DNA of 64,000 nt, taken from contig JAQTUL010000002.1 in assembly GCA_028710275.1 (NCBI GenBank), positions 12,855-76,854 of the forward strand, written 5' to 3'. This DNA is from Candidatus Colwellbacteria bacterium (GTDB lineage: Bacteria > Patescibacteriota > Minisyncoccia > UBA6257 > Colwellbacteraceae). The notes beneath the pieces were generated by a model, which was given only the letters and a program-made list of their open reading frames with translations, ran no database searches and was not told where the DNA came from. Below, in pieces: positions 24,151 to 63,240 of this stretch. The position numbers and the translations under genes are program-made. Every line of letters begins with the position of its first letter. The first letter of the stretch is position 1.

Positions 24151-25194
24151 ATGATTTTATTCTTTTCGGATTGGAGACTATTACTTTCCACCATGGCAGC
24201 TCCTTACGTTGTTCCCATTATCTTTGAGGATTCGGATGAAGAAGAGATCAAACTTTCGACCGTGACGGTGTGTCCATACATATTCGTCAAGGGAGTGAGA
24301 AAGGGAGAGACGTGTGGGAAGAAGTGTAAGGAAAAGTACTGTAGTGTACACAAGGAGAGAAAAGGTATCGTGAAAAGTTGGAACAAGCGGGATACGATCC
24401 CACCGGAGCTTTTGAAAAAGAGTATGGTGTACGATAATGCAGTTGAAGAGATGAAGGAAGGAGTGTACGATAATGAGAGTGAAGAGCTTAACGAAGATGG
24501 GTTGACCGCGAGACAACAAAGCGCACTTGATTACGCTATGTGTCTAGAGAAGAAGATTCCATCCCCACCATCAACTGATGCGATCTGTCTCGCGAACTTC
24601 ATACAGTTCATCTGTCCGATCAGTATCAACTTTCCATCGGCGATTCTTCATAAGCTTGTCAACGACACACACGTGAGAAACGGGTTTGAGACAAAAAGAG
24701 GATTGGACAAAACAATTCGTCCAACATGGGAGAGTAAACTATTCAATACATATTACGATAAGTCTGTTCCTTTCGAGCGACCAAAGTATGGAGCGATCAA
24801 AACAAATCCTCTCAGTATGGTGAGCAACAATTCTACTATGGGATATGGTGATGCAGTGTTCATTCTGAAAGACGAGGTGAAGAGGAGATGCACAATGACT
24901 CCCGGAGACAGTTCGATTTTTGCAGCTGATAATGTATACACATTCGATCAGATTCAGGAGATGCTGATGAAACATCCTCATGTAAGGAATCACATCATGA
25001 CTTGTTATCAAGCGTACGAACGAGAGGATCACGCAGGATCAAAAGAATTTGCATCATACATTGAAGTCCAAATTCATGGTCAACTCCTATTCTCAAGTAT
25101 CGCTAAACTTGTGATCTTATCAAAGGATGAGGGACTACGGATGATCGCGACTAGATTCGGAGAGAAGAATAAGTGTGAGGTTGTTTTCCTGTAG
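24151..25194 (+). CDS. hypothetical protein with N-terminal Cys cluster; carries an in-frame copy of the dispersed repeat
   Basis: The track start 24136 is GTG. In-frame ATGs are at 24151 and 24193. CPYIFVKGVRKGETCGKKCKEKYCSVH. The repeat copy 24371-24419 encodes KSWNKRDTIPPELLKK. Confidence 0.45.
   Translation: MILFFSDWRLLLSTMAAPYVVPIIFEDSDEEEIKLSTVTVCPYIFVKGVRKGETCGKKCKEKYCSVHKERKGIVKSWNKRDTIPPELLKKSMVYDNAVEEMKEGVYDNESEELNEDGLTARQQSALDYAMCLEKKIPSPPSTDAICLANFIQFICPISINFPSAILHKLVNDTHVRNGFETKRGLDKTIRPTWESKLFNTYYDKSVPFERPKYGAIKTNPLSMVSNNSTMGYGDAVFILKDEVKRRCTMTPGDSSIFAADNVYTFDQIQEMLMKHPHVRNHIMTCYQAYEREDHAGSKEFASYIEVQIHGQLLFSSIAKLVILSKDEGLRMIATRFGEKNKCEVVFL
24371..24419. repeat. dispersed repeat copy (+ orientation) embedded in frame in CDS 24151-25194
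   Basis: tgaaaagttggaacaagcgggatacgatcccaccggagcttttgaaaa. Confidence 0.85.
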
Positions 25195-25563
25195 ATTTCA
25201 TGTCACTATTAACAGAATAATATATTCCTTTGAATGAATATATTAATCACAATGAAGTTCTTTATACAGAACAGAAACTGTATCTGTAGCGGCTGTCGGC
25301 CAGAAATATGGAAGGATTCCATGTATCGTTGTTTTCACACTACAGATAATCATTCTTGTAGATATTGAGAATGCTCTCTTCATATGATCAAAATAGCTTA
25401 TGTTATTCTCTGTGAGATGAGAGAAAAATCTTGAATTAATCGCGTCGATTCGTTGGGCCATTCTTTCTTATACTTTCAATTATTTAAAACGACAACGATG
25501 AAAAAGTGAGATCCCGAATAATATTGTAGTTGAAATCACTACACTTTACCAACCACCAACACT

Positions 25564-27432
25564 ATGGCTAACGCGACTTCTATGACCACCGTCACTCTCA
25601 ATTTGACCCCGGAACAGTCCCTTTTTCACGGGTCACCAACTCTATTCGAAGCTCCGTATCTTCCTCGTAACATCGAGAACAGATTTTCATGTGAGACTAA
25701 GTTTCCACTCTATTACGCGACAAAGAGTTGTTCTACTATCTCTCCTGGAGAGGGATACTTGTACGAGTATAAGATCTCAGAGTGGGCAAAAAAAGAACAT
25801 GGAGGAATTCCTAATTTCCTTCATCTTCAGGGAAATATTCATGAATCGATGAAACATTATATCGACATGATGCTTCAAGAACCTGAAATTCATCATTTTA
25901 CCGATGACGAGATTCGTCGGAATATGCCATACGGATTTATGTCATCTCGAGTTAATTCTTCACAGAACGATTTGGAACTTGCATGTGTCTGTCGCACAAA
26001 ATACAATGGTATTTATGTACCAGGATATGAGAATCAACTACTGATCTGTGGTAGAGGACGCCCTCAGTGGTTGGAGATTCACAACATCTTCAAAGTCGTA
26101 AAGGGAAAGGATGGAAAGATTACGTCGACGTTATTTCAAACTTTCCCTGATTTTTTCTCGGAGCCAGCGAAAAGAAGTGGAACTCCGGTTCCGTCAGAGA
26201 ATAGATCTTGTAACCTTTACGAGGGAGACAAGCTGTCGTTGGAAGAGATTTTTGGAGAGGATATCTTTAAGAATGATAAAATCGAGACTGATAGCAGTAG
26301 CGGGTATAATTCATCCATTGGAGATATCGATCATATGTTCAACAGTCCATATAACTCACCGACTCGAAAGAATGAAGAAAGAAAAGAGGGAGAACCTGAG
26401 ATTCCAGTTGATGTGTGGGAGCAGATTTGTACTCGTACTGTAGTGGAGAAGACTACGGTCATCAATGGTAAGAAGGTTCGGATTGATGTTGACGGCGCGA
26501 CACCTCGGCTTCCTAAACCTATCCGTATTTCAGACACACTCACAAAGGGAAGTGTGTTTAAACAGTCCACTCTGAAGACTGGCAAGTCTATCGAACAGAA
26601 GCATGAAGAACTCTCTGAAAAGAAGGGTGTATGGTCAGGAAAATCTTACGGAACAGATTCGTGGGATACTGGATCGTGGCATAACGGAGGTGATTGGCGT
26701 GATACTGGATCGTGGGGTAACGGAGGTGATTGGCATAACGGAGGATGGAAGACGAAGTGGAATGATAAGAATGTTGATAAATTCGATGAAGAGGTTAATA
26801 CGGGAGTAGATCCAATCATTAAGTTCTATCGAAATGAAGCTGTCAATAAGGCAAAGAGACGTCTTTCTACAATTTGGAACTGGAGTGATGAGAAGCTAGA
26901 GAGTCAACATGATTTTATCCAGTGGATATTTCCTCTGATTGAGAAGAGTCGTTTCAACTATGATGCTCCTGTCCTTACCAAGCGTTCAATTGAGATTCTC
27001 AGAACAGATAGAGAGATTCAAGAAAACATTAAAGTCTCATTCGATAAGATGTTCGCATTCTATGGTTGGAAGGTTAATGAAACTCTTGATGGAGTTGAGA
27101 GAATGACTATCGAGGTCGAGAAGGATGGTGAAGTTGAGAAGAAGCTTAAGCCGATGGAGTGGCTTCGCCATTCTCACAACTTTGATCGTATCACACGTAT
27201 CATGACGTCGTTGAAACTTTTGGGTCGTACTGACCTGTCTGAGCTTTTCTTCATGGCGTTGTGTCGTACAGCAAAGGGCCCCAACGCTCGAAAGATTATC
27301 GCTTCTTCATTCATCGAGTACTGGCTTCCCACACAAGAACATTTTCTTCCTACCAATGTCCTCGAGGCCTACTGTACCGACATCACCGATCGACGAAAGA
27401 AAAGTAATCGAATCGACTCCTTTGTCTCTTAA
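25564..27432 (+). CDS. hypothetical protein with W/G-rich tandem peptide repeats
   Basis: 622 aa. ATG verified. The repeats DSWDTGSWHNGGDWRDTGSWGNGGDWHNGGW correspond to a tandem DNA repeat near 26640-26750. Confidence 0.5.
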   Translation: MANATSMTTVTLNLTPEQSLFHGSPTLFEAPYLPRNIENRFSCETKFPLYYATKSCSTISPGEGYLYEYKISEWAKKEHGGIPNFLHLQGNIHESMKHYIDMMLQEPEIHHFTDDEIRRNMPYGFMSSRVNSSQNDLELACVCRTKYNGIYVPGYENQLLICGRGRPQWLEIHNIFKVVKGKDGKITSTLFQTFPDFFSEPAKRSGTPVPSENRSCNLYEGDKLSLEEIFGEDIFKNDKIETDSSSGYNSSIGDIDHMFNSPYNSPTRKNEERKEGEPEIPVDVWEQICTRTVVEKTTVINGKKVRIDVDGATPRLPKPIRISDTLTKGSVFKQSTLKTGKSIEQKHEELSEKKGVWSGKSYGTDSWDTGSWHNGGDWRDTGSWGNGGDWHNGGWKTKWNDKNVDKFDEEVNTGVDPIIKFYRNEAVNKAKRRLSTIWNWSDEKLESQHDFIQWIFPLIEKSRFNYDAPVLTKRSIEILRTDREIQENIKVSFDKMFAFYGWKVNETLDGVERMTIEVEKDGEVEKKLKPMEWLRHSHNFDRITRIMTSLKLLGRTDLSELFFMALCRTAKGPNARKIIASSFIEYWLPTQEHFLPTNVLEAYCTDITDRRKKSNRIDSFVS

Positions 27433-27486
27433 AGAAGATGAAGGAAAATTGAGATATCATTTTGAATATAATATCTCAATTACACA

Positions 27487-27681
27487 ATGATTACTAATCC
27501 CTTTCAGAAGATGATAGATCTCGAATCTCAAATATTAAAAGAGACTGCGATATTAGAGAAGATACGAGAGAAATTTTCTACATCCGTCCGTCATGTGACT
27601 CTTAACAAATATATCTATCTCTCATTATTCACCGGGTGCGTCTTTCTTTCATCTCTACTTCTTGTTGTTGTTCTCGTTTGA
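27487..27681 (+). CDS. possible small tail-anchored membrane protein
   Basis: 64 aa with a C-terminal hydrophobic helix. It lies in a repeat-rich spacer, so it is uncertain. Confidence 0.25.
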   Translation: MITNPFQKMIDLESQILKETAILEKIREKFSTSVRHVTLNKYIYLSLFTGCVFLSSLLLVVVLV

Positions 27682-27808
27682 AAAGTTGGAACAAGTGGGA
27701 TCGTATCCCACCGGAGCTTTTGAAAAGTTGGAACAAGTGGGATCGTATCCCACCGGAGCTTTTGAAAAGTTGGAACAAGTGAGGTCGTATCCCACCGGAG
27801 CTTTTGAA
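27676..27808. repeat. 3x tandem array of 42 bp unit TTTTGAAAAGTTGGAACAAGTGGGATCGTATCCCACCGGAGC (dispersed repeat family, + orientation)
   Basis: Three head-to-tail copies with one variant (gtgaggtcg). The unit carries the imperfect palindrome GTGGGATCGTATCCCAC. Minus-strand ORF 27615-27812 is a reading-frame artefact of this array. Confidence 0.9.
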
Positions 27809-27979
27809 ACAATTGATTATTGAAAAATTTGAGAATTGTAGATCAACATTATGGACACTCTCTTCTCAAATTTTTCAATAATTCCATCTAGATTGATAAC
27901 TCACTATTTAGTAAGTGATGATATCTCAAAAGTGTGCTTAAAAGTTGAAGCACATATCTCTGTGGCTCAGAGAGAGATC

Positions 27980-28040
27980 TTTGAAAAGTTGGAACAAGTG
28001 GTATACAATCCCACCGGAGCTTTTGAAAAGTTGGAACCGC
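27980..28040. repeat. dispersed repeat copy (+ orientation) inside small ORF 27851-28147
   Basis: ctttgaaaagttggaacaagtggtatacaatcccaccggagcttttgaaaagttggaacc. Confidence 0.85.
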
Positions 28041-28135
28041 TTGACTCAGTTAAAATAAAAAGTCTCAGACAAAAGATAAAATCTTTTGTAGGAATGAGGG
28101 AACTGGTTATGGATCAGGCTCTTATAGACGCTGAG

Positions 28136-28471
28136 TTATCCGTTTAATTTAGCATCGTTTAGATCTCGAACCGTAAGTGATTGAATCTTATAGAGAATCG
28201 TGAGAAATAGAATCATAACCATAACAATTGGTATGAGAATAACTGCCCATGCGATCTTCTCGTGCTTATACTTACAAAGAAAATAGATTACTGTTATAAG
28301 AACTATACCACTAATCACACCACACACATTAGATTTGATTCTGATGGATTTAGTTGTTTCATCCATACAATTACTTACGGCGGTTTTGTGACGGAGTAGG
28401 TCGAATAGATTTATGATTATCATTCCTGAATATAGAACTAGACCAATCAAAAACGGCAAACATGTGTGCAT
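28136..28471 (-). CDS. small multi-pass membrane protein
   Basis: 111 aa. ATG verified. Three hydrophobic helices. Confidence 0.4.
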   Translation of the reverse strand: MHTCLPFLIGLVLYSGMIIINLFDLLRHKTAVSNCMDETTKSIRIKSNVCGVISGIVLITVIYFLCKYKHEKIAWAVILIPIVMVMILFLTILYKIQSLTVRDLNDAKLNG

Positions 28472-28542: not shown

Positions 28543-30252
28543 ATGCCGAACCGACAAGGATTGTCTTCAGAAGACATGGCTTCTCTTTTTTCATCGATGC
28601 GCCCTAATACGATGTTTAACCCTCTCAATATTGTACGTCCAATGGTTCCTCTTAGCTCAGGAAGAATTCCTCTTGAATCAGTTGGTCGAGCATTGGTCCC
28701 TCCTGTTGTTCATTCAGGAGCATCATCTTCTCGAGGAGAATCAAAAGATCAGTATGAACTCAAAGAAGATAATGTTTCACCACCGGATTACATACGTTCT
28801 GATCAGTATGTCGATTATAAAAAATTATGTGATGATAATCTCGAATGTTCTATATGTCTTAATATCATTGATGGAACAGTGGCTATCACAACATGTATGC
28901 ATCGTTTCTGTTCATCATGTCTTTTCGAGTATATGATGAAAAAAGTAGGAAGTGCATCATGTCCCAACTGTAGAGCTTCTATTGACAACCCGGAAGATGT
29001 TATGATCTCATCCGAACTATCAGATATATTGGATAGTTCAGTTATCCGTTGTAAAAATAAAGAGTGTACTGCTGAGCTTCCTCGTAAAGAATATAAGAAA
29101 CATACACAGATCTGTGAGTTCAATAAGAAACAATGTAAGGGGTGTAAGTCTCTCTATTTCGAAAAGGACTTTGAAAGTCATATGGAGGAATGTCTATATC
29201 GAGTTGTGAAATGTAATCTGTGCAATTCATACACTAAAGTCAAGGACCAGAAAACCCATAGAGATGATGTGTGTCCGGGAACAATGATCAAATGTCCTAA
29301 TCAAAAGTGTAACTATATGACGCAGCGTTCTAAGATCAATAGACATAACGCTTCATGTACTTATCGAATGGTTACCTGTTCTAATGGATGTGAATCGATA
29401 TTCGACCATAAGGAACAATCTTTGCATAATGAGATCTGTAATCTTCGTCCTGTGATGTGTGAGTTCTGTGAGAACAATGTTCCATACAGTAAGCTCATTG
29501 ATCATTACAGGCTCTGTCCCAAGAAGCCGGCCGAATGTAAGTGGTGTAAATCCACGATTGTGTTTGGAGATATGTCTATTCACGAAATGAACTGTTTGAA
29601 AAAAATAGTAAAATGTCCCTTGGGTTGCGGTATTGATATTGAAAGAATGGAAACCGTAAATCATACTTCTATCTGTTCGAATAGATACGTCAAGTGTAGT
29701 GACTGCTCTCAACAGTATATGCTATCGAGAAAAGATTATCACGAATCGCTGTGTTCAGAGACAGTCGTGAAATGCCCAGACTGCTCTCAGAAGATCACTC
29801 GGAAGAATATCTATTTTCATTCTCAAAGTAATTGTGAGATGAAGATTGTCGAATGTAAGTATGTGTACGCGGGATGTTCATGTAAGTTTACCAGAAAAAC
29901 TGAGAGCGAACATTACAGAGAGTACAAGGATCTTCATCTTGAGATTCTTGATAAATATATTCAAGAAAAGGTTCACGTTTCTCTTTCCCGTCCGAGAAAT
30001 CGTTTCGAAGACATGCCGGCGTCTTATTTTGCACTTGTCTCTCAACCGGCTGCATCTCCGATACTATCTAGACCTCCCCCACGAGTTGAGAATAGATCTT
30101 TTGTTGATGCTGCAAACGAGTATATTGCTCGAGACGAGGCCTTACACGCTAGTCATCAACGACAGATGGATGCTCTTAATCAGGCGGAATCAGATGACGA
30201 GAATGATGAAGAGTATGAACACGGTCATGATTCTGGAGAAAGATGGGGATAA
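28543..30252 (+). CDS. RING finger plus multiple TRAF-type zinc fingers (putative E3 ubiquitin ligase)
   Basis: C3HC4 RING CSICLN...CMHRFCSSCL...CPNCR. This is followed by at least six C-x2-C-x(n)-H-x(n)-C modules spaced as in TRAF/SIAH-type zinc fingers. Acidic C-terminus. Confidence 0.7.
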   Translation: MPNRQGLSSEDMASLFSSMRPNTMFNPLNIVRPMVPLSSGRIPLESVGRALVPPVVHSGASSSRGESKDQYELKEDNVSPPDYIRSDQYVDYKKLCDDNLECSICLNIIDGTVAITTCMHRFCSSCLFEYMMKKVGSASCPNCRASIDNPEDVMISSELSDILDSSVIRCKNKECTAELPRKEYKKHTQICEFNKKQCKGCKSLYFEKDFESHMEECLYRVVKCNLCNSYTKVKDQKTHRDDVCPGTMIKCPNQKCNYMTQRSKINRHNASCTYRMVTCSNGCESIFDHKEQSLHNEICNLRPVMCEFCENNVPYSKLIDHYRLCPKKPAECKWCKSTIVFGDMSIHEMNCLKKIVKCPLGCGIDIERMETVNHTSICSNRYVKCSDCSQQYMLSRKDYHESLCSETVVKCPDCSQKITRKNIYFHSQSNCEMKIVECKYVYAGCSCKFTRKTESEHYREYKDLHLEILDKYIQEKVHVSLSRPRNRFEDMPASYFALVSQPAASPILSRPPPRVENRSFVDAANEYIARDEALHASHQRQMDALNQAESDDENDEEYEHGHDSGERWG

Positions 30253-35742: not shown

Positions 35743-36633
35743 ATGCCTATCAGGTATCAAGGTGGAAAGCAACGCTTTGCAAAGGCGATCTATGAGGTTA
35801 TGACCGATTACGAATATCGAAACACAGGAAAGAATAAGCTCAATCTCTACTCACCATTTTTCGGTATGGGAGCCGTAGAGTTAGAGTTCTCTAGAAGGGA
35901 TAACGACGAGAAGTGTGTACGAACGATAACAGCCAATGATATAAACGAAGATGTTATTCTTATGTGGGAGTCTCTCCAAGATGGTTGGCTTCCTAAAAAG
36001 ACCTGTTCAGAGACATACTACAAGAAATTAAAGACATCTGATCCATCAGCTGAGAGAGGATTTTATCTTTCCGCTTACGCGTTTGGTGGAGTATTTGGAA
36101 GCAGTTTCAGAGGAAAGTATCAAACTCCTGAACAGAATAAACGAGAAGGTCTTAATGCATACAACAAAGTGAAAGAGGTTGTTCCTTATCTAGACTGTTT
36201 TAAGTTTCGTAACGGATCGTATATAAAACGAATGCCGAAAAAGGGAGAGATGGTCTACGCTGATCCTCCGTATTATAGTTCTCTAGATTATGGAGTGAAT
36301 AAGTATCTGACCGATTTCGATTACGATGAGTTCTGGGATACGATGAGAAAATGGAGTAAGACCAATCTAGTGTTTATAAGTGAAGAGAAAGGAAAACATA
36401 TACCGAAAGATTTTATAAGTATATGGGAACTCTCTACAACTAGAACGGTGGGAAGTCTCAAAGGTGGAAAGGGAAAGAAAAAGGAATCTCTCTTTATTCA
36501 TAAACGATATGTGAAGAAGGGATCGAAGAGACGAGAGAGTCCCGATAAGGAGAAGATTTCAGAATGCAAAGAGTATCTAGAGGATATGGGATATAATGTT
36601 AAGAAAACCCGTAGATCTAAAAATGATTTGTAA
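35743..36633 (+). CDS. N6-adenine DNA methyltransferase (Dam/D12 class)
   Basis: N-terminus IRYQGGKQR (WAGGK-like AdoMet motif). Catalytic DPPY at VYADPPYYSS. Confidence 0.75.
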   Translation: MPIRYQGGKQRFAKAIYEVMTDYEYRNTGKNKLNLYSPFFGMGAVELEFSRRDNDEKCVRTITANDINEDVILMWESLQDGWLPKKTCSETYYKKLKTSDPSAERGFYLSAYAFGGVFGSSFRGKYQTPEQNKREGLNAYNKVKEVVPYLDCFKFRNGSYIKRMPKKGEMVYADPPYYSSLDYGVNKYLTDFDYDEFWDTMRKWSKTNLVFISEEKGKHIPKDFISIWELSTTRTVGSLKGGKGKKKESLFIHKRYVKKGSKRRESPDKEKISECKEYLEDMGYNVKKTRRSKNDL

Positions 36634-38981: not shown

Positions 38982-39455
38982 TTAAGAGAAGATACGAAAG
39001 AATAGAAAACTTAGAACAGAGGATGCAATCCCCGTCTTTGCAGACATCAACATGATGAATGGTGTATAGGTTCCAGCTAATCTAAGCACAGGAAAAAGAT
39101 AATCCTTTATGTAGGAGTATTTGCTATAAGGAATTTTTACACCCTTGATAGTACTGATCTCGTTTGAAACCAGAATCATACTCTCATTCATCTTATCAAC
39201 GTTATCACCTAATCTATTTACATTTTCGTTTTGTATAACCATGAGTTTATGCATATCGATAACCATACTTTTGAGGTACTCCACCTCCTTTAACAGATCA
39301 CAGTGTCGTTTGTGATCAATCACTTCATTTACAATAAGCCATTTTCTCTCATCCCCGGTATTTGAGTCATCAAGATCATCAATCTCGTCTAACACTTCAA
39401 TCTCGGTATGATCAATTAATAGCTGTTCATTAGAGACACATTCGTTAGTCGACAT
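38982..39455 (-). CDS. hypothetical protein with C-terminal hydrophobic segment
   Basis: 157 aa. ATG verified (MSTNECV). Confidence 0.45.
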   Translation of the reverse strand: MSTNECVSNEQLLIDHTEIEVLDEIDDLDDSNTGDERKWLIVNEVIDHKRHCDLLKEVEYLKSMVIDMHKLMVIQNENVNRLGDNVDKMNESMILVSNEISTIKGVKIPYSKYSYIKDYLFPVLRLAGTYTPFIMLMSAKTGIASSVLSFLFFRIFS

Positions 39456-39583
39456 TGTATAAACTATGTAAAGATATTCGGTCTTAAATCAAATTTTATG
39501 AAATCTGAGCAGCTTAGATGAGATTGGTGAATCCAACCCGGAGCTTTTAACAATAGAAAATCTATTTAAGAGAGTAGTTGTTT

Positions 39584-40623: not shown

Positions 40624-40644
40624 TTTCAAAAGTTGGAGAATCAT

Positions 40645-41514: not shown

Positions 41515-41637
41515 GGCTGATTACTTTTTCTTACATTTCTTTAAAGTTACTTACTTAAGGAAAGTAAGTAAAAGTAAGGAATCTTCGAAATACTTCCGAA
41601 CTTATGACTTTCAGAGATCAGAGAAATCGTCTGAAAG

Positions 41638-41795: not shown

Positions 41796-41841
41796 TAGTT
41801 TCGGAGTTCGGAGATAGTCGTGAACTCCGAAAAACTATTTG

Positions 41842-46156: not shown

Positions 46157-46231
46157 ACTTTTTAAAGTCTAGACTTTAAAAAGCTCCGTCTCGATTATCA
46201 GGATTGTTCCAACTTTTTAAAAGCTCCGTCC
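46157..46231. repeat. two partial dispersed repeat copies (- orientation) plus 26 bp perfect palindrome CTTTTTAAAGTCTAGACTTTAAAAAG in the divergent spacer
   Basis: ctttttaaagtctagactttaaaaagctccgtc ... gttccaactttttaaaagctccgtcc. Confidence 0.75.
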
Positions 46232-50291: not shown

Positions 50292-50323
50292 AACAATCAG
50301 CTCATTCCAACTTTTCAACTAGA

Positions 50324-51432: not shown

Positions 51433-52107
51433 ATGAAGGGGTTATCGATAGATATCGGGGTGCATAATATGGCCTTCTACATAGAGGAGTTTGATCAATC
51501 AAAAATTAAATCTCTTAACTGTCCCAAGACCCAACGATATGATGATAATGGAGCGGCAACTGAGAAATTTAAAACTCAGGTACTGAAACATGTGTACACG
51601 AATGGAAAGAATGTGTTTCTTGATAAAGCTGATCTATCACAAGAGAAGGGAGTGGCTTTTGATGTTCATCTATTTATAAATTTAACATCATATCTGGATA
51701 GTCATATCAAAGAGTTTGATGACTGTTCATTCGTTATCATCGAACAACAGTTGAAGACCAATCCGATGGCGCAACGACTAGAACAGCATTGTGTGTCTTG
51801 GTTCACATTTACTTATCTCGATACAAAAGAGATTGTTATCTTCCCATCAAAGAACAAAACACGTGTTCTCGGCGCTCCGAAAAAGGTACCTCATCGAAAG
51901 ACGGGGAAACCATCGAAGATGACCAAATCTCAAAGAAAGAAGTGGGCGTGTGACGAGGCATCTAAAATACTTACCCTAAGAGATGATATGGTATCAATGA
52001 AACATATCTTTGTTACCAATAAAAAAAAATCAGACGATCTGAGTGATGTAATTTCAATGATGCAAGCCTTTAAAATTAAATGTTTTATTGATGGGGTATT
52101 AAAGTGA
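51433..52107 (+). CDS. poxvirus A22-like RuvC-family Holliday junction resolvase
   Basis: N-terminus LSIDIGVHNMAF (as in A22 ICAFDIGAKNPA). Second acidic block FVIIEQQ. C-terminus DDLSDVISMMQAF (as in A22 DDVADSFNLAM). Confidence 0.65.
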   Translation: MKGLSIDIGVHNMAFYIEEFDQSKIKSLNCPKTQRYDDNGAATEKFKTQVLKHVYTNGKNVFLDKADLSQEKGVAFDVHLFINLTSYLDSHIKEFDDCSFVIIEQQLKTNPMAQRLEQHCVSWFTFTYLDTKEIVIFPSKNKTRVLGAPKKVPHRKTGKPSKMTKSQRKKWACDEASKILTLRDDMVSMKHIFVTNKKKSDDLSDVISMMQAFKIKCFIDGVLK

Positions 52108-53222: not shown

Positions 53223-53418
53223 AGATATAATATACTTATATGGGCGCGCGAATGGTTTCGACTTGGTTCTTATACAGCTGACGGAGGGGTCCAATTCCCC
53301 TCGTGCCTATACACTAAAATTATTTTATCGTATGAATACGATAAAATATCTTCAATAAAAATGAATATGCCGACTGTTCTAGAGGAAATTCTACCACTCA
53401 TCGTCTCTTCCGTAAAAG

Positions 53419-56400
53419 ATGTCGATCGAATTTGAAAACGATTCTGAAGATGATATCGAATTGGATGTTGCAGTTACCGGTGCAAGAGTAGGAGATGTGA
53501 TTATCGGTCAGCAGAAGTGTACGATGAAAGCGATGCTTCGTGTGTATACATCTCCTATTTTCCCGATGAAGAAGTATCTGGATGAATTACGAGATGATGA
53601 TGAAAAGTGGGAGAGATTTCTCGCGAAGCTCTCGTCACTCTCATTCTTCGCAAACATGACTCGGGATGAGCGTGAAGAGTGGATGGATGAGAATGAGACA
53701 ACTGTAGAGTTTATTGGGGACGACCGTGAGGGAGGCGAGAAGAGTGGAAAAAGAAAAGAAACGCATATCGAGATTCTGGATGTAGGAACTTCGACATTGA
53801 CCTCTCAAGTGGAGTCAGAGGATCTGGAGGTACTCATGGAGGGTAAGGAAGAGGGATTCTATTCGGTTGAGGAGATTGAATCTCGATTCCCGAGAAAGCC
53901 GGGAAGTAATGCGCGAAAACATACTCTCTTCTTTATGAAACAGTTTTGGGTTGTGGTGACAGATTACAAGATCGTTACGTCGTTCGATGGAGTTGTATTC
54001 GATATCGAAAATGGAGAGATCAAGTCGAACTGTGAAACAGAGGATGGAAAGGAGTTGATTGTTATTGACGGAATCACAAAGCAGTACACGTTCGGAAAGA
54101 AAGATGAATGGGTGAAAAAGTCAGAACAAAAACTCGCGTTTCTCGTTTCGAAAGAGAGATTCGATCTCTCAAAGATAGATGAGATTGTAAAGGAGACATA
54201 TAAGGAGTTGTCAGACGTCGATGGCGATATGAATGATACGATCCGGAAAATTAGAACAGACTTGAGAGAATACACAGCCGGGTCGTTCAAATCTCTTATG
54301 CAGAAGATCATTCGATTCGGTCCGGATAAGGTATCACTTCTGGATGGAGAGATTGTGGATGGAGGAATAGTCATTCTCGTTGTTGTTGCGATGCTCGCAC
54401 AGAATCCAGGATCATTCGTTCCTGATATTCAGAGATATGTTACAGGACTTGAGTCTGTAGCAAAACGATTGGGGATCATCTGTGGATTCGAAGACTCGTA
54501 TACACCTCCGGAACGAGTGAATGAATTGGTGTCGTTGTTCTCTGGCGCACTTCTTGCTCAGAGAGTAAGATCATGGAAACCGAATAGACAAACTCTAAAA
54601 CTCTGGATGACAACTGCGTATAAATCGCTCAATGAGCGGAGAGCTATCGATTACGAGAAGGAGTCATCTAATCTCTCAATTACAGACTGGTGGACTCTAT
54701 GTCATAAGAAGGGATTGGATATGAAACCGTACGCTATCTCGGAGAAGTTGAGTCCGATAAAAACGTGTAGCGCGATTCTAGATACTCTTAGGTCGTTCGA
54801 GGGAGATATTGGAATGGCTCGACATATTGCATCAGTTTATCCGAAGTGTGAACTTATAGAATGTGATAGAACACATGAGGTTGTGATGCCTCTGTGTCAC
54901 GGAACAGATCAACATTGGGCTGCAGGGTTCATCTACTTCTTCACTCCGAAAACTATTCTTCAGAATAAAGGAGAATCCTCACCGTTCGATAAGATATTCA
55001 CTCGTGTGTTTCAGGAGGTGACCGGATTCAATCCTCGAAGAGATGAGATTGGAGAAGACTTTGAAGATGATGAATTTGTGAAGGAGACGCGGAGATCGCA
55101 GATGTTGTATCTAGTAGCAAAACAGAACAAACAGACAAAGAGAAAAATCCTCAAACGAGAACATTACAAGAGTAGCTATCAGTTGAACGATTCATGGTTG
55201 GCTGGAATGGTTAGTGCTATAGAGATTCCAGGAAGTCCGGCAACTATTGTGACTCTTCGTCCAGAGAATATCTATCAGCTTATCGCAATCAGAAAGCCGT
55301 CTCGTAATATGGCAGAGAACATCACTCCCGAAAGAGAGGAGTACTCGAAGAAGACTGCAAAGGAGATGTTGAAGAATGGAATAAAACTAAAGGGAACACA
55401 TCCTCCATCGGAATTTTTTAAAGGTGCATCAGTCAAACTAGTTGATGATGAGTATATTATCATTTCAGCAGATGGTATTTCGATGACATGGGAGGATGCA
55501 AGAGATATCGATATCTCTCTTCCATATCACAATGCTGTAGATAAGAATATAGAGAATTCTATTTCTCAGTGGGGAGAAGGTATTGAGATCAATGCGTTTG
55601 AGAAACTTGATAAGCTCATTGCAAAAACCAACACAAAGGTAATGTACCGTGTCCTTTCGTATATCGCAAACTATAAGAAGGAGTTTGAGATGAATAGAGT
55701 TAGTCGAGATGGAAACGGAACTTATCAGAGTGTCAGTCTTAATGATGTTCGTGCTTATCAGTTCATTCTCACTCTGAGTCAACTCTTTCCTGCAGCATTA
55801 CGACCGGTTGAAAAATCGCCTCAGAAATTCCTAGTTCCAGTTGGACCATTACTGTGGAACATTGTTACAAAGATCAAGGGATTCTTGTGTAAGCCGGAGG
55901 ACGATGATGGATGGGATGAAGTAGAGATTAAGGATTCCTTAGAGAGAGTTGAGTGGACTCATCAGAAGGAGACTACAGAGGAGATGATCAGGAACTTCAA
56001 GTCGGGAACGAAAGGAAACTTCTTATGGCTGCGCGTCGGGCTTGGGAAGTGCCTCCACCCAGATACTAAAGTTTTGTTATGGGATGGGTCCATGAAACGC
56101 GCGGAAGATGTACAAGTGGGTGACAGACTTATAGGGGACGACAATACGTATAGAAATGTACTGACTACATGTACCGGTGAAGAGGAAATGTTTGAAATTT
56201 CACAAATCAAAGGTGATTCTTATAAAGTAAACAGATCTCATATTCTGTCTCTGAAGTTTTCAGGACATAAAGGATATTATTGGAGTGAGTCTTATCATAG
56301 ATATTCTGTCACTTGGTTGGATAAAGAGGAGGTGAAACGAAAAACTAAAATCTTTACGGTTAGCCAGGTATATAAAACGAAAGAGATTGCTTATGATACA

Positions 56401-58389
56401 ATGATGCAATTTCGATCTACAATTCCAGACGATGATATTATCGATATCTCTGTAAACGATTATCTCTCTCTTCCTCAAAATTTTAAGAATGAATTGAAAG
56501 GTTTTAAGGTAGGGGTTGATTTCCCTTCACAAATTGTTTTTATGGATCCTTATTTATTGGGAGTATGGCTTGGTGATGGATACTCAAATGGATCCGGATT
56601 TACTAACATAGATGAAGATTGTATTAATTCTTTCGTGAAAGAAATAGAATCTATGGGGTGTCATATCTATAGAAAAAAATCAAAGGGAGAAGATACAATT
56701 TCCTATGCTGTACGAGGTATTTATGAAAATAAAAAGAGAAAGAGAAACCATTTTCTGGATATTATAAGATACTATGGAATGTATAAAAATAAACATATCC
56801 CTAAGGACTTTTTAATTAATGATAGAGAAATTAGATTGCAGGTTTTGGCTGGATTGATAGATACTGATGGATATTATAACGATGGATGTTATGAGATAAT
56901 ACAAAAAAGAAAAGAGTTATCGGATAACATTTTGTACTTGGTTAGATCATTAGGATTTAACGCTACACAAAAAGAGGTTCAAAAAACATGTACAAATTCT
57001 ATACATGGAAGAATAACAGGTACTTATCATAGGTGTATATTCAGTGGAGAAGGAATAGATCTTATTCCTTGTAAAATTGAAAGGAAAAGAGCACCTGAAA
57101 GAATGCAGGTGAAAGATGCATTGAGTACAGGAGTTACAGTTAAGAGTATAGGGAATGGTAAATATTGTGGATTTACTATCGACGGAAATAGTAGATTTCT
57201 TCTTGGAGATTTCACGGTGACTCATAATACCTTAATCGTAATGAACTTTCTCTCGTGGTTGAAAAGTATGAAAAAACTCTCAAAGTATATTCTCTACACA
57301 CTCCCACCGTCCGCGATTGAGAGTGTTGTACATGAGATTCAGGCGTTTGGATTAGAGATCAACTATATCATTCCGCTGAAGAGTATCAAAGGTAAGAAGA
57401 TTCCGAAAGGAGTAACGGTTACTCAGGAATGTGTTCTCGTTCCGTATGCGGTGAATATCATTGCACACGACCATTTGCGGCGATGTAGCGACGAACTTCT
57501 CAGTTATGCAAGCGAGTGTACATTCCTGGTCGATGAGGTTCATAAGGGATTGAATGAGACAAAGAGAACTAGTACCCTTCTCGATATTGCTCGTCTTTCA
57601 AGAATATTTGTAGCCTTTACAGGAACACCAGTGATCGACAACAAGATCTATAAACTCATCTGGTGGTTGGAACAGATTGTTGAGTTTGAGGTCAATCTCG
57701 GAAACTTCTGGGTGAGTGCAAATTCGATGGTTGCGAGAAAGATCTCGACAGGCGTGAGAGTGATTCGAAAGGAGGTGGTAGCTAAATTCAAGGATGATGA
57801 ACTTTCCGAATACAAAAAACTTGTTCCAGTTGCAATGGGAGGAGAGAATAAGTATGCGTCGAATACAGACTTCAACGATGCGTACAAACTCTGTTGTAAC
57901 GTGACAGCGAGTAGACGAATGATTGAGGAGACAATGGCGGCGTTGGGTGAAGATAAAGGAGTCATGTTGGTCGCGCAGAATAGATCTCATCAAGATCGTT
58001 TGAAAGATATGCTTGTTGATGAGGGAGTGAAGGAGAAGGATATCTTTATCTTGACTGGAAACAATAGTATATTCTTGACGGATGAGGCTGTGAAGAAGAA
58101 GATCATTCACGATTACAAAGTTGTTATCGTTCCGATGAACAAACCTGAAGGATACACATTGACAAGACTAACAGTTATGGTAACGTGTGTCTATCCGTCT
58201 AACGAAGCAACTCGTGAACAGATCGAGGGTCGTATCAATCGTATTAGTCAGGCTGCGGAAGAGATTGAAATTATCGTGGTACACTGCGGAATTCTCACTT
58301 ATATTCTAAAGAATCATAATCAAGCAAAGAGTCTGAGTATCGCGTTGAGTGATATGGCAAAGAAACTGGAGGGTGTGAAGATTGCGTAG
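53419..58389 (+). CDS. D6/D11-like (SNF2/DExH) SF2 helicase interrupted by an intein
   Basis: The 1656 aa ORF has a Walker A split as RVGLGK|[intein]|TLIVMNF. Downstream are FLVDEVHKGLN (DExH) and QIEGRINRISQ (motif VI). The host protein is about 1263 aa without the insert. Confidence 0.75.
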   Translation: MSIEFENDSEDDIELDVAVTGARVGDVIIGQQKCTMKAMLRVYTSPIFPMKKYLDELRDDDEKWERFLAKLSSLSFFANMTRDEREEWMDENETTVEFIGDDREGGEKSGKRKETHIEILDVGTSTLTSQVESEDLEVLMEGKEEGFYSVEEIESRFPRKPGSNARKHTLFFMKQFWVVVTDYKIVTSFDGVVFDIENGEIKSNCETEDGKELIVIDGITKQYTFGKKDEWVKKSEQKLAFLVSKERFDLSKIDEIVKETYKELSDVDGDMNDTIRKIRTDLREYTAGSFKSLMQKIIRFGPDKVSLLDGEIVDGGIVILVVVAMLAQNPGSFVPDIQRYVTGLESVAKRLGIICGFEDSYTPPERVNELVSLFSGALLAQRVRSWKPNRQTLKLWMTTAYKSLNERRAIDYEKESSNLSITDWWTLCHKKGLDMKPYAISEKLSPIKTCSAILDTLRSFEGDIGMARHIASVYPKCELIECDRTHEVVMPLCHGTDQHWAAGFIYFFTPKTILQNKGESSPFDKIFTRVFQEVTGFNPRRDEIGEDFEDDEFVKETRRSQMLYLVAKQNKQTKRKILKREHYKSSYQLNDSWLAGMVSAIEIPGSPATIVTLRPENIYQLIAIRKPSRNMAENITPEREEYSKKTAKEMLKNGIKLKGTHPPSEFFKGASVKLVDDEYIIISADGISMTWEDARDIDISLPYHNAVDKNIENSISQWGEGIEINAFEKLDKLIAKTNTKVMYRVLSYIANYKKEFEMNRVSRDGNGTYQSVSLNDVRAYQFILTLSQLFPAALRPVEKSPQKFLVPVGPLLWNIVTKIKGFLCKPEDDDGWDEVEIKDSLERVEWTHQKETTEEMIRNFKSGTKGNFLWLRVGLGKCLHPDTKVLLWDGSMKRAEDVQVGDRLIGDDNTYRNVLTTCTGEEEMFEISQIKGDSYKVNRSHILSLKFSGHKGYYWSESYHRYSVTWLDKEEVKRKTKIFTVSQVYKTKEIAYDTMMQFRSTIPDDDIIDISVNDYLSLPQNFKNELKGFKVGVDFPSQIVFMDPYLLGVWLGDGYSNGSGFTNIDEDCINSFVKEIESMGCHIYRKKSKGEDTISYAVRGIYENKKRKRNHFLDIIRYYGMYKNKHIPKDFLINDREIRLQVLAGLIDTDGYYNDGCYEIIQKRKELSDNILYLVRSLGFNATQKEVQKTCTNSIHGRITGTYHRCIFSGEGIDLIPCKIERKRAPERMQVKDALSTGVTVKSIGNGKYCGFTIDGNSRFLLGDFTVTHNTLIVMNFLSWLKSMKKLSKYILYTLPPSAIESVVHEIQAFGLEINYIIPLKSIKGKKIPKGVTVTQECVLVPYAVNIIAHDHLRRCSDELLSYASECTFLVDEVHKGLNETKRTSTLLDIARLSRIFVAFTGTPVIDNKIYKLIWWLEQIVEFEVNLGNFWVSANSMVARKISTGVRVIRKEVVAKFKDDELSEYKKLVPVAMGGENKYASNTDFNDAYKLCCNVTASRRMIEETMAALGEDKGVMLVAQNRSHQDRLKDMLVDEGVKEKDIFILTGNNSIFLTDEAVKKKIIHDYKVVIVPMNKPEGYTLTRLTVMVTCVYPSNEATREQIEGRINRISQAAEEIEIIVVHCGILTYILKNHNQAKSLSIALSDMAKKLEGVKIA
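56050..57228 (+). mobile_element. intein with LAGLIDADG homing endonuclease domain inserted in helicase P-loop (GLGK|C...HN|T)
   Basis: Begins with CLHPDTKVLLWDG (Hint block A) and ends with FTVTHN followed by a +1 Thr. LAGLIDADG blocks LLGVWLGDGYSNG and LAGLIDTDGYYNDG. 393 aa. Confidence 0.8.
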
Positions 58390-58412
58390 GAGAAAAAATG
58401 AATATCTTATAC

Positions 58413-58480
58413 TTTTGAAGAGAAGAATACACCCGTACGGTACTTTCCCTTCAAAAGCTCCGGTTTGTGATTCCAATTTT
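58413..58480. repeat. inverted pair of partial dispersed repeat cores (CTTTTGAAG ... CTTCAAAAGCTCCGG) upstream of 58489
   Basis: acttttgaagagaagaatacacccgtacggtactttcccttcaaaagctccggtttgtgattccaattttt. Confidence 0.7.
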
Positions 58481-58488
58481 TTCTCGAA

Positions 58489-60041: not shown

Positions 60042-60062
60042 ATTACACGAGTAACTGAATAG

Positions 60063-60086
60063 ATTCAAAAGTTATAACTTTTGAAT
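60063..60086. terminator. hairpin ATTCAAAAGTT-at-AACTTTTGAAT after the 59022-60041 stop
   Basis: Perfect 11 bp arms. Confidence 0.45.
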
Positions 60087-60120
60087 TTAACCTTAAAGAC
60101 GTATAATCTTATAGTATCTA

Positions 60121-60762: not shown

Positions 60763-60786
60763 AAGTACCACAAATAAAGAAGTTTA

Positions 60787-61107: not shown

Positions 61108-61236
61108 CTTCAATTAACAAATTACTGAGTAATCTGTTAATATTTTGAAAGTTGGAACGAGAGCGTTTGATAATTGACGATAAAAATGATTGTTTGTCTG
61201 GATAGATAGTGAGTTTTACTTACTTCGTACTTCAAA

Positions 61237-61995
61237 ATGAGTAAACTCATTCCCGAACGAGGATCATTCTCAAAAGCTCCGGTGGGATCGTATCCCACTT
61301 GTTCCAACTTTTCAAAAGCTCCGGTGGGATACGATCACACTTGCCTAAGTGGTTCCAACTTTTCACGTCCGGAATTCTATCCAAGTGCTCGCGCCGGGAT
61401 GGGAACCCAACAGGGATTTCTCTATTCTAGTCCAGGTGTAGATATCATCCATAATGATGATCTGGAAGAGATTGTCATCCATACACCTCCTATGAAATCT
61501 CCACCACAAGTTCGTCAGATAATCAACGATGATTCGTACTGTTCCTCAAAAGTTATGATCGGAAATGTAAAGTTCCCTCTATCTATTTTTATTATTTTAG
61601 CAACTATCTTGACAGCATTGTCTATATGTGCTATTATTATTCACGATAGATATAGCAATACCACATGTATTGGATCATACAGTGGGATTGTATTTGGTTA
61701 TGTAAAATGGTTGTATATTTATGCATGGACAAATATTGGACTTATCGGGTGTATGTGTTGGTTGTTCATTATCTCTCGGTTCTCATCAATCAAAGTAGAT
61801 TCTCTAAAACTTAATATCCTGAGACTGGGATATCTTTTTCAGTTTGCATGGTATATCGTCGGAGCTGTTCTCTACTTTATTGAGATTAATGAATCATGCT
61901 CGTCGGGTGATATTCTCTACGATTTCGGTTTGGCTCTATTTATTTGTCAAACAGTCGTGTGGTTCACTATTTTATTTCAGGACCGAACAACGTGA
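61237..61995 (+). CDS. multi-pass membrane protein; N-terminal 45 aa encoded by dispersed-repeat copies
   Basis: Four C-terminal hydrophobic helices. The N-terminus FSKAPVGSYPTCSNFSKAPVGYDHTC is the reverse-complement reading of two repeat units. The true start may be a downstream ATG. Confidence 0.5.
   Translation: MSKLIPERGSFSKAPVGSYPTCSNFSKAPVGYDHTCLSGSNFSRPEFYPSARAGMGTQQGFLYSSPGVDIIHNDDLEEIVIHTPPMKSPPQVRQIINDDSYCSSKVMIGNVKFPLSIFIILATILTALSICAIIIHDRYSNTTCIGSYSGIVFGYVKWLYIYAWTNIGLIGCMCWLFIISRFSSIKVDSLKLNILRLGYLFQFAWYIVGAVLYFIEINESCSSGDILYDFGLALFICQTVVWFTILFQDRTT
61270..61372. repeat. two dispersed repeat copies (- orientation) at the 5' end of ORF 61237-61995
   Basis: ctcaaaagctccggtgggatcgtatcccacttgttccaacttttcaaaagctccggtgggatacgatcacacttgcctaagtggttccaacttttcacg. 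Confidence 0.85.
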
Positions 61996-62075: not shown

Positions 62076-62645
62076 ATGAGTTCTCCCTCCCTTAAAACTT
62101 ACGTCATCAATATCATCGGCGGACCGGGAGTAGGAAAATCCACTCTGTCAGCTCTTATTTATGCTCAGCTTAAACTGAACAAGTATGTCACTGAATATGT
62201 GCAGGAGTATGCGAAACAGCTCGTCTGGACAAAGGATTTTTCTAAACTGAACAATCAGTATTACGTAACAGATCACCAATATTCTCTATTCAAACGAATG
62301 GAAGGTCTTGTAGATTTTATTGTAACCGATGGACCTCTGTGTCATGGACTATACTACAATATTTACAATCCGGACAACACATCAAACGTCGAGAAGACGG
62401 AAGAGAAGATTCTTGAATGCCATCGAGAATTCAGAAACATAAATATCGTTCTTAAACGAGGACGATTTGAATATGAAACTCAGGGACGTCTTCAGGATAA
62501 GAATGAAGCGATAGATATTGATGGTCTTATTAAAGAACAGTTGGTTGAACACGAAATCCCGTTCAAGGAGTTTGTCGCAAGTCCTGATAGGAAGACTATC
62601 GAAGCTATCATTCAGTACATTGAAACTAACATAAATCTACTTTAG
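62076..62645 (+). CDS. P-loop nucleoside/nucleotide kinase-like protein
   Basis: N-terminus YVINIIGGPGVGKSTLSALI (Walker A in a kinase-like context). 189 aa. Confidence 0.45.
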   Translation: MSSPSLKTYVINIIGGPGVGKSTLSALIYAQLKLNKYVTEYVQEYAKQLVWTKDFSKLNNQYYVTDHQYSLFKRMEGLVDFIVTDGPLCHGLYYNIYNPDNTSNVEKTEEKILECHREFRNINIVLKRGRFEYETQGRLQDKNEAIDIDGLIKEQLVEHEIPFKEFVASPDRKTIEAIIQYIETNINLL

Positions 62646-62675
62646 TTAAAGTAAAAAATCTCTAATGAACTAGTC

Positions 62676-63008
62676 ATGAAAACCTTTCCTGATAAACTAC
62701 GTCCAGAGAATAGAGAACGATTTGTAGCTGAATATCGATTCAATCGAGAACTCTGTAAACTAAGACAGAGAATCGTCGATTATATGTATTCTGGAGATAA
62801 TAAGGGATTCGACCTTAAATCGTCTACAGACGGTAACGGACAATATGAGTATTCAACAATAGATCGTGAACTTGTAGATTCCGCGTGTAGAGAACTTCAT
62901 ACTCTTGGATGGAATACGGAATTAGCGTACGGAGAAACCACGCTTTTCATATTCAAGAATCGTTCAGAGCTTCCAATGATGAGTGATATGCAAGAGATCG
63001 ATTCGTAA
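62676..63008 (+). CDS. hypothetical protein
   Basis: 110 aa. ATG verified. Confidence 0.4.
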   Translation: MKTFPDKLRPENRERFVAEYRFNRELCKLRQRIVDYMYSGDNKGFDLKSSTDGNGQYEYSTIDRELVDSACRELHTLGWNTELAYGETTLFIFKNRSELPMMSDMQEIDS

Positions 63009-63240
63009 AGATTTATAATATTTACTGTATTATAAATATGTCAAAACTTGCACCCATAATTATGTTATGATGATGTTGTATTATGGTCTTAGTTTTGGGT
63101 GGATGTACATGTCAGAAGACAGGAACAGGATGGAGAATATAATCTCTATTCCCACACATACAAATTGATTATATTCTTATTCAAGAGAATATAATCACTC
63201 CTTCTCAAAAACCCACAGAGGAGGTTCCAACTTTTCAGAT

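Follow-up and report, generated by a model that had tools for sequence, protein, structure and literature searches.

A short hairpin-centred repeat, interspersed between and within genes, in a probable fragment of a Mimiviridae-like giant virus

Contig JAQTUL010000002.1 of assembly GCA_028710275.1 is filed under the name Candidatus Colwellbacteria bacterium, and a stretch of 64,000 nucleotides of it (positions 12,855 to 76,854 of the forward strand; hereafter, the window) carries a family of short dispersed repeats which is the subject of this work. The repeat unit is 42 bp long (TTTGAAAAGTTGGAACAAGTGGGATCGTATCCCACCGGAGCT), and the family ranges from about 42 to 50 bp. In our reading, which we hold with a probability of roughly 0.55, it is a non-coding, hairpin-centred interspersed repeat that has multiplied within a Mimiviridae-like clade, i.e., a non-autonomous selfish element akin to (i) MITEs (transposable elements of the miniature inverted-repeat type); (ii) repetitive extragenic palindromic (REP) elements; and (iii) Rickettsia palindromic elements (RPEs). 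Such a tiny, clade-wide hairpin element of giant viruses is apparently undescribed. The evidence base consists of about 76 kb of one genome together with short fragments of its relatives.

A first-pass annotation of this DNA had proposed a dispersed family of 42-50 bp, in both orientations and with at least 12 copies, and the counts of the motif and of its boxes, far above expectation, bear this out. There are 12 hairpin-bearing units at nine loci (763, 24369, 27677 with three units, 27980, 39504, 40344, 41841, 46173, and 61266 with two units), and some six copies that are decayed, lack the hairpin or consist of a left box only (40628, 50304, 58447, 61143, 63201 and the doubtful 7663). The 22-mer GGAGCTTTTGAAAAGTTGGAAC has five matches at <=3 mismatches (0 expected), the palindrome GTGGGATCGTATCCCAC has 10 strand-matches (0.04 expected), and the flank boxes CCGGAGCTTTT and AAAAGTTGGAAC are each found 14 times at <=1 mismatch (about 0.5 expected). 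A covariance model made from 11 copies and run on the window plus 13 loci recovers the known set, and this search finds no additional full-length copy in the window. The individual copies are as follows:

763-812, minus strand: unit of a related subfamily, AAAAGTACGAAGTA-[GTCCATTCCATTGGGC]-CGAAGCTTTTAAAAAG, which begins at the stop of open reading frame (ORF) 264-770; 52 bits, model seed.
24369-24419, plus strand: full unit, in frame (VKSWNKRDTIPPELLKK), in the linker between the zinc ribbon and the DUF3626 domain of gene 24193-25194; flanks TGAAAAG / TGAAAAAG.
27677-27809, plus strand: tandem array of 3.2 units with period 42 and 97% matches (Tandem Repeats Finder), from the stop of the small ORF 27487-27681 to 42 nt before the ATG at 27851.
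27980-28037, plus strand: 1.4 units, in frame (FEKLEQVVYNPTGAFEKLE), with a flipped-type loop, in the candidate 98-amino-acid ORF 27851-28147.
39504-39554, plus strand: partial unit, left box lost, with the hairpin TTGG-TGAAT-CCAA and the right box CCGGAGCTTTT, between the divergent genes 38982-39455 (minus) and 39584-39994 (plus).
40344-40394, plus strand: diverged full unit with the hairpin GTTTG-GCGAAT-CAAAC, read in frame (KSLNKFGESNPELLKK) within the central part of gene 40015-40623.
40628-40639, plus strand: left-box-like fragment AAAAGTTGGAGA of weak membership, 5 nt past the stop of 40015-40623.
41841-41890, minus strand: unit of the related subfamily with a perfect 7-bp hairpin, GTCCAAT-GT-ATTGGAC, adjoining the end of a 1.2-kb duplication.
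46173-46229, minus strand: a single unit, whose hairpin TCCTGA-TAA-TCGAGA is of a third type, with an additional right box, between the minus-strand genes 45781-46140 and 46237-47694; a 26-nt perfect palindrome (46158-46183) adjoins it.
50304-50315, minus strand: a left box alone (ATTCCAACTTTT as read on the plus strand), which precedes the ATG at 50324 by 8 nt.
58447-58484, minus strand: hairpin-less unit AAAAATTGGAAT-CACAAA-CCGGAGCTTTTGAAG, between the SNF2 helicase gene and gene 58489.
61143-61174, plus strand: degenerate hairpin-less unit GAAAGTTGGAAC-GA-GAGCGTTTGA.
61266-61367, minus strand: pair of tandem units, reversed in orientation and read in frame (FSKAPVGSYPTCSNFSKAPVGYDHTC) at the 5' end of ORF 61237-61995.
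63201-63239, minus strand: decayed unit with an intact left box and a degenerated right box, ending 2 nt before the ATG at 63241.

With regard to the copies listed in the first-pass annotation, those at 24369-24419, 27677-27809 (a 3.2-fold array), 27980-28037 (1.4 units), 40344-40394 and 61266-61367 (two units, minus strand) are upheld. Others had to be redrawn: (i) the copy placed at 39526-39553 is real and occupies 39504-39554, with the hairpin and the right box only; (ii) of the two copies placed at 46157-46231, one is a full unit, and the second turns out to be the extra right box beside the unrelated 26-nt palindrome; (iii) the supposed inverted pair at 58413-58480 reduces to the hairpin-less copy 58447-58484, its partner being a 9-bp inverted repeat; and (iv) the sequences at 40621-40642, 61141-61165 and 63222-63238 are left-box-only or decayed copies, the first of them of weak membership. 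The site 7663-7680 is probably not a copy, as it presents only the CTTTTCAAAAG core, which overlaps the early-promoter motif AAAAGTGA. The sequences at 766-812 and 41842-41890, suspected of being diverged relatives, do have the architecture of the main form, and a copy found in another virus (contig L008, see below) is intermediate between the main form and this 763/41841 subfamily.

The repeats are not an assembly artefact, because an independent assembly (the Logan assembly of SRR22315508) is base-identical to the window across every overlap while its contigs break inside copies, namely at 27706 (where contig L022 stops within the array), 41886 (one contig begins inside copy 41841-41890), and 61299 and 61307 (contigs end and start within 61266-61367), and also at copies outside the window. 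In practical terms, short-read assemblies of this virus are broken by the repeats at predictable places. Three further copies lie outside the window: at the start of contig L003, at L003 4026-4061, and at the end of contig L002 (around window position 65728).

As for their placement, 10 of the 14 loci are intergenic in a window that is 90.5% coding (P about 4e-8); genes are depleted of copies, the exceptions being free of stops and in frame. The direction of the copies relative to the genes is mixed (about nine forward and seven reverse, in our own tally), and their distances to start codons are irregular, with 51-170 nt from box to ATG. Many copies stand 0-25 nt past a stop codon (763, 27677, 40628, 46229, 58447, L003 4026 and L008 2876), and three reversed left boxes precede the ATGs at 50324, 58489 and 63241 by 2-8 nt.

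In the aligned copies, the unit is composed, in this order, of the A-rich end TTTGAAAAG; TTGGAAC followed by AA(G); a stem-loop; CCGGAGC; and the other end, CTTTTGAAA(AG). These ends form terminal inverted repeats of 9 nt with one central mismatch, which extend to about 11 nt (TTTSAAAAGYT), and the half-sites TTGGAAC and CCGGAGC are direct repeats (YYGGARC). Both half-sites are altered together, to TACGAAG and CCGAAGC, in the related subfamily, whose copy at 763-812 is 91% identical to that at 41843-41886 (repeat family D14).

The central stem is G+C-rich and 5-7 bp long, with a loop of 3-6 nt, and its sequence is of six kinds (GTGGGAT, GTTTG, GGTTGG, TCCTGA, GTCCAAT and GTCTAAT), each of them an end-anchored palindrome. 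In the alignment, 85.7% of the cells are paired and six of the seven pairs have changed on both sides; none of 500 shuffles matches the observed covariation, and slid registers are only 20-53% paired. The hairpin is selected as a structure: the stem sequence itself turns over and the boxes stay. Folding energy is modestly better than that of shuffled sequences (z of -2.1 for the array as DNA and of -3.1 for the 24369 copy as RNA). In Rfam, there are no matches at the gathering threshold in the window, and only chance-level ones around the array.

The loop has also been inverted. It reads CGT in four copies, ACG in three and a derived ACA in one, all of them with identically oriented flanks, and the loop TGAAT at 39504 has its counterpart in ATTCA at the start of L003. 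Since these loop pairs are exact reverse complements, they are not products of point mutation, and the fact that the loop is found flipped argues that the hairpin forms in DNA. Three copies have no hairpin (58447, 61143 and L003 4026) and are bounded by GGAAC/GGAGC direct repeats. Furthermore, the second unit of 61266-61367 (61317-61367) contains an 8-nt insertion which turns AAGTG into a new palindrome, CACTTAGGCAAGTG (61331-61344), and looks like the footprint of a template switch. As a separate observation, the canonical hairpin (27695-27711, 61282-61298 and others) includes exactly one GATC in either orientation of the loop, and a D12-class (Dam-like) methyltransferase gene is located at 35743-36633; a Dam-type link between the two is doubtful, since the GATC is not kept in the variant hairpins.

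Four ORFs contain copies (24151, 27851, 40015 and 61237), and the in-frame peptides that had been quoted for them are correct. These ORFs have no mutual similarity at E < 1e-3 and read the unit in frames +2, +1, +2 and -2. The repeat is a DNA element and not a protein motif, because its host ORFs are unrelated, three frames are used and the loci are mostly intergenic. When a composite six-frame peptide query is compared with 5.8 billion proteins, the sole match is the window's own ORF 61237.

Gene 24193-25194 encodes a zinc ribbon at the N-terminus fused to a DUF3626 domain, a conserved combination. Its orthologs P0098 (74% identity), P0099 (63%) and P0100 (50%) keep both domains, and the VKSWNKRDTIPPELLKK segment is missing from them. 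Synteny with contig L007 is established by its upstream gene, the ortholog of 23519-24148; in a DNA alignment of the two, the window exceeds L007 by 45 nt, which are exactly the repeat and are bounded by TGAAAAG / TGAAAAAG, and L007 reads GCGAGAC/GTG at the insertion point. This genic copy is absent from the orthologs in L007, L008 and L020. L008 does carry an element in the spacer upstream of its DUF3626 gene, not inside it; the placements in L008 and in the window are independent and of different lineages. A low-quality AlphaFold model of the fusion (mean predicted local distance difference test score of 62; six sequences) has the insert in its least confident segment, residues 57-96, between the domains, which weakly supports the location of the insert in a flexible linker.

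Likewise, the homologs of gene 40015-40623 (P0106 and the frameshifted ENA contig L013) span both halves of the protein, the repeat-bearing stretch being missing. For the short ORF 27851-28147, no homolog could be detected. In the case of ORF 61237-61995, an in-frame ATG stands at 61399, just downstream of the copies, which may be 5' leader rather than coding sequence. A repeat search of the syntenic spacer in L001, a 75%-identical relative, gave no match to 58447-58484, the spacers being too diverged for a clean alignment.

The same boxes, with hairpins of their own, are present in two related uncultivated viruses that were reached via protein homologs. In the first (L008-L012, from SRR27907433-37) there are 1.6 units with period 40, GAGCTTTTAAAAGTTGTAACAAG-TCTAATAAATCAGA-CCGAAGCTTTTAAAAG, and the L008 hairpin is GTCTAAT..ATCAGAC. 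In the second (L020/L021, from ENA) about three units of a 39-bp repeat, AGTCTCGTAGAGACCGGAGCTTTAAAAAGTAATGAAATT, stand in frame at the start of a called gene of 316 amino acids; the hairpin of the L020 array is AGTCTC-GTA-GAGAC, followed by CGGAGCTTTAAAAAG. Three more GTCTC..GAGAC hairpins occur in L020 spacers, with an exact AAAGTGA before them and a right flank unlike the canonical box. Between these viruses, orthologous proteins have an identity of only 50-63%; the box CCGGAGCTTT(T)nAAAAG, common to the relatives, therefore outlasts protein divergence to that level, and the stem is lineage-specific. Exact-pattern scans of IMG/VR, JGI metagenomes and GTDB genomes return chance matches only, in unrelated GC-rich or coding DNA, and the clade that carries the family has been seen only in one NCBI metagenome-assembled genome (MAG), in Logan assemblies and in ENA assemblies.

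Hence, the motif is found outside the window and in two relatives, has intergenic copies and does not correspond to one gene family. A MITE-like selfish element was among the possibilities offered by the first-pass annotation, and of its three proposals it is the one with the strongest support: the host ORFs are unrelated, insert-free orthologs are available, most loci are intergenic, both orientations are used and copies extend beyond the window.

Regarding known systems, the RPEs are functionally the closest, as they are likewise short and palindromic, occur both between genes and in frame within unrelated genes, and have insert-free orthologs; the invaded gene gains a peptide and stays intact (PMC10969869). 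Nevertheless, RPEs are about 100-150 bp long, with one conserved frame and a conserved peptide (PMC10969869), whereas the element described here has 42-50 bp, three frames, both strands, tandem arrays and a giant-virus host. REP elements, together with their composite forms (bacterial interspersed mosaic elements, BIMEs) and prokaryotic MITEs, are also imperfect palindromes, mostly extragenic, often placed after a stop codon, in both orientations and either single or clustered. REPs are palindromes of 20-50 nt with species-specific sequence and conserved architecture, and are tied to the gene of a Y1 transposase (the REP-associated tyrosine transposase, RAYT) and to a conserved 5' tetranucleotide (PMC10969869, PMC11602168); here, in contrast, neither a RAYT gene nor the 5' tetranucleotide is seen, and some copies are genic. 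As regards the definition of a MITE, the element has terminal inverted repeats, small size, no coding capacity, multiple copies and presence/absence differences, but no autonomous partner among the window ORFs scanned.

Few families of giant viruses are known to have selfish repeats, namely 'submariner' in Pandoravirus and the M1/M2 MITEs in Pithovirus, which are about 140 bp or longer and reside in non-coding regions (PMC4495683, PMC10664404). These MITEs are also non-autonomous inverted repeats with putative target duplications, tandem or clustered, and with no transposase in the viral genome. By comparison, the present element is three times shorter, belongs to a Mimiviridae-like lineage to which those two virus families are unrelated, has in-frame genic copies and contains a covarying hairpin. 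In yeast mitochondria, the mobile G+C clusters include optional in-frame copies in the var1 protein gene. Those clusters are likewise palindromic, of 30-50 bp, mostly intergenic in a compact A+T-rich genome and flanked by A/T-rich repeats, and no dedicated transposase is known for them (PMC4464245, PMC8811140); they differ in residing in an organelle genome, in their sequence and in having no conserved flanking boxes. In any case, the element departs from each named family in defining features, since it has no autonomous or RAYT partner, is far below RPE length and uses several frames.

If the repeat is indeed a selfish element, its history might be described as follows. New copies would be added at A-rich, TGAAAAG-like sites, with the heptamer left on both sides; flanks of 7 nt of this kind (TGAAAAG/TGAAAAAG) bound the 24369 copy, and similar A-rich heptamers lie beside the other copies. 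The 42-bp arrays would come from re-insertion or slippage at the common heptamer (a 35-nt core plus 7), because, as we propose, each unit regenerates a TGAAAAG-like site. The hairpin formed in DNA is probably the feature that is recognised or used during copying, and the loop inversion, the gain of a palindrome and the loss of the hairpin between GGAAC and GGAGC could be footprints of intra-strand template switching. Most genic insertions would have been purged by selection, the survivors being (i) intergenic copies; or (ii) stop-free copies of a length multiple of three, in linkers and termini, which would add 14-17 residues to proteins as the RPEs do. Two native spacer palindromes (60060-60089 and 46158-46183; TAGATTCAAAAGTTATAACTTTTGAATCTA and CTTTTTAAAGTCTAGACTTTAAAAAG) have in common with the element its A-rich ends or its box, a hint that spacer sequence of this kind gave rise to the element or is targeted by it.

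If the selfish reading holds, a hairpin element much smaller than those already known would persist across species in a Mimiviridae-like lineage; conserved viral genes would be shown to take in such elements in frame, and thereby to gain protein novelty in a way recorded until now mainly from Rickettsia and yeast mitochondria; and the flip-flop loops and covarying stems would be direct sequence evidence that small DNA hairpins are formed and processed during giant-virus replication.

Several observations weigh against this reading. Among the roughly 45 window ORFs scanned there is no transposase or other plausible mobilising enzyme; a RAYT (Y1 HUH transposase), in particular, appears neither in the window nor in about 12 kb of its flanks (Pfam). 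The only clean empty site, that of L007, is GCGAGAC and not TGAAAAG; the heptamer may thus be an integral part of the unit. The phase of the boundaries is inconsistent, the copies at 27980, 46173, 39504, the start of L003 and L008 being half a unit off, and this variability is better suited to slippage or templated copying than to a transposon with fixed ends. That five of six frames are open in the tandem unit is only marginally unusual (P = 0.05-0.08), and, of the four cases inside ORFs, those of 27851-28147 and of the 5' end of 61237 may be non-coding. Finally, the conservation of the box at 50-63% protein identity could equally mean that the virus makes use of it.

One candidate mobiliser has been considered and set aside. 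The C2H2 zinc-finger gene at 40645-41514, which has a paralog at 14457-15371 and a homolog in L008, shows no similarity to nucleases or transposases (Pfam, PHROGs, PDB sequences), and it is also disfavoured by the position of the element at 41841, just outside the duplicated block, when the other block has a native hairpin there. The block in question is a segmental duplication of 1.2 kb (14462-15705 and 40653-41836, about 83% identity) which contains the zinc-finger gene (304 and 289 amino acids, 63% identical; the L008 homolog is at 44-949); after one duplicate comes a long native hairpin, and after the other the repeat element at 41841. A bolder proposal, which we consider rather unlikely, is that the clade has a native copy mechanism that recognises the hairpin: a conserved structure-specific enzyme of the virus or its host would bind CCGGAGCTTTT/AAAAGTTGGAAC and move a hairpin cassette of 35 nt to TGAAAAG sites. 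The cassette would also serve as a portable gene-boundary module, with a terminator hairpin and a promoter-like box, and would remodel viral proteins where it landed in frame. Were this true, eukaryotic viruses would have their first example of an RPE-like element that invades proteins, one that would rank with the smallest known mobile DNAs.

Among the explanations that compete with a selfish element, the one with most in its favour, still well short of even odds, is that the repeat is a portable intergenic module that serves the virus: the hairpin and its T-runs would act as a bidirectional 3'-end signal and the left box AAAAGTTGGA as a weak variant of the early promoter, so that copies would be retained for terminating the upstream gene and/or starting the downstream one. 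The element does imitate the layout of Mimiviridae spacers, with an A-rich box and then a hairpin in a short spacer (PMC4402537, PMC5294985), and this virus follows the hairpin rule in about 30 of 65 genes. The copies that stand just past stop codons, the three reversed left boxes that closely precede ATGs, the conservation of the boxes in three viruses and the second L020 repeat type, with its exact AAAGTGA directly before a GTCTC..GAGAC hairpin, all agree with such a role, and the left box is only two mismatches away from AAAATTGA. However, native hairpins are unique, AT-rich and of 11-22 bp, whereas this one is repeated, with a GC-rich stem of 5-7 bp, and four of its loci are inside ORFs; two units even sit mid-gene where relatives have single genes and where a terminator would be harmful. 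Several loci already have an adjacent native hairpin (46158-46183; the inverted repeat 58412-58458). As a promoter, the repeat box AAAAGTTGG does not fit AAAATTGA, orientation is unbiased and the distance from box to ATG does not keep to the -40 to -65 rule. For these reasons the promoter or packaging motif suggested by the first-pass annotation finds no backing: the virus has its own early promoter, AAAAnTGA, which does not match the box, and no evidence bears on packaging. The mixed orientation and irregular spacing likewise lead us to reject a late promoter or a 5'-leader signal as a general explanation.

Quite unlikely, in our opinion, is a minisatellite that needs no transposase, in which the array grows by slippage, units template-switch into TGAAAAG microhomology during replication or break repair, and the hairpin flips and the palindrome at 61331-61344 are by-products of the same intra-strand switching. 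It accounts for the variable phase of the copy ends, the tandem arrays in three viruses, the exact loop inversions and the palindrome-creating 8-nt insertion, and it agrees with the failure to find a transposase in the window; the hairpin-less copies between GGAAC/GGAGC repeats are what slipped deletion of a palindrome predicts. But by itself it leaves unexplained why the boxes are conserved across viruses with 50-63% identical proteins when the stem turns over, and why both half-sites change in concert between subfamilies (TTGGAAC/CCGGAGC versus TACGAAG/CCGAAGC). Two further readings are essentially excluded. It is very improbable that the repeat is conserved as coding sequence of a single multigene family, or as a peptide module selected at the protein level: the unit lengths (42 and 39 bp) are divisible by three and GESNPELL is encoded at both 39526 and 40363 with three differences, all in third position, yet this pattern has a chance probability of about 0.11 and the 39526 copy has no surrounding ORF, while the non-paralogous hosts, the three frames on both strands, the intergenic majority and the peptide query that matched only the window's own ORF all contradict it. 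Least credible of all are recognition sites for a homing endonuclease (another suggestion of the earlier annotation) or a packaging/replication signal. Two intein-borne LAGLIDADG/Hom_end endonucleases are encoded in the window, and the AGCTTTTGAAAAGTT core is a dyad of the type bound by dimeric proteins; nevertheless, the copies are not spatially linked to the inteins or to free-standing endonuclease genes, and they are too numerous, degenerate and variable at the centre for a site of 14-30 bp.

On the identity of the DNA itself, the gene content suggests that the window is probably a fragment of a Mimiviridae-like giant virus (Nucleocytoviricota), despite the Colwellbacteria MAG label at NCBI, where the entry for a helicase protein identical to that of the window is named 'MAG: Candidatus Colwellbacteria bacterium' and belongs to a contig of 90,576 bp; the bacterial MAG name of the GenBank record most likely reflects a binning error. 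The assignment to giant viruses rests on a flanking VLTF3 gene, on promoters of the AAAAnTGA type, on the hairpins that follow stop codons, and on the presence of inteins and of eukaryote-like genes. The VLTF3 gene, of poxvirus type, is on the upstream flank (L003 256-1410), and the relative L020/L021 carries a DNA polymerase B (L020 1307-6055). The window itself encodes a bifunctional DHFR-TS, a Rad50-like ATPase (9221-11659) and the D12 adenine methyltransferase. AAAAnTGA, the early-promoter pattern of Mimiviridae (AAAATTGA; PMC5294985), is found upstream of the ATG in 28 of 65 ORFs, at -21 to -98 and mostly at -40 to -65, and AAAGTGA is observed 12 times (0.9 expected). Mimiviridae also obey a hairpin rule, by which a palindrome after the stop is the 3'-end signal (PMC4402537), and in the window unique, AT-rich palindromes of 10-22 bp occur within 60 nt past the stop in about 30 of 65 genes, against about 1% in coding controls.

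Two helicase genes bear inteins: a PIF1 gene at 41957-45112, whose intein has a LAGLIDADG_3/Intein_splicing domain, and an SNF2-type gene at 53419-58389, whose intein is of the Hom_end_hint/Hom_end kind. The latter intein is absent from the closest SNF2 homologs, P0002-P0004 (about 1250-1290 amino acids). The eukaryote-like genes include (i) a synaptobrevin/R-SNARE-like gene (63241-63648); (ii) a weak thymosin-beta match (51433-52107); (iii) a gene for a protein with RING and TRAF-type zinc fingers (28543-30252); and (iv) one for an OGFr-domain protein (25564-27432).

Other sequences of the window are repeated as well. A spacer module composed of a stop, an AAAGTGA promoter, an 11-bp hairpin (ATTTTATAGTA..TACTATAAAAT) and a CA-rich leader is found at 18237-18283, 18567-18613 and 53312-53358, with 98% identity between two copies before neighbouring genes and 74% for the third; copying in this genome therefore extends to intergenic modules of an ordinary kind. 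In addition, there are two in-frame tandem repeats: one of 183 bp x 3.8 in ORF 11696-13294 (11906-12693), where a Logan contig ends; and another of 237 bp x 1.8 (20271-20704) at the C-terminus of the helicase 18615-20717, which corresponds to two HA domains (Pfam).

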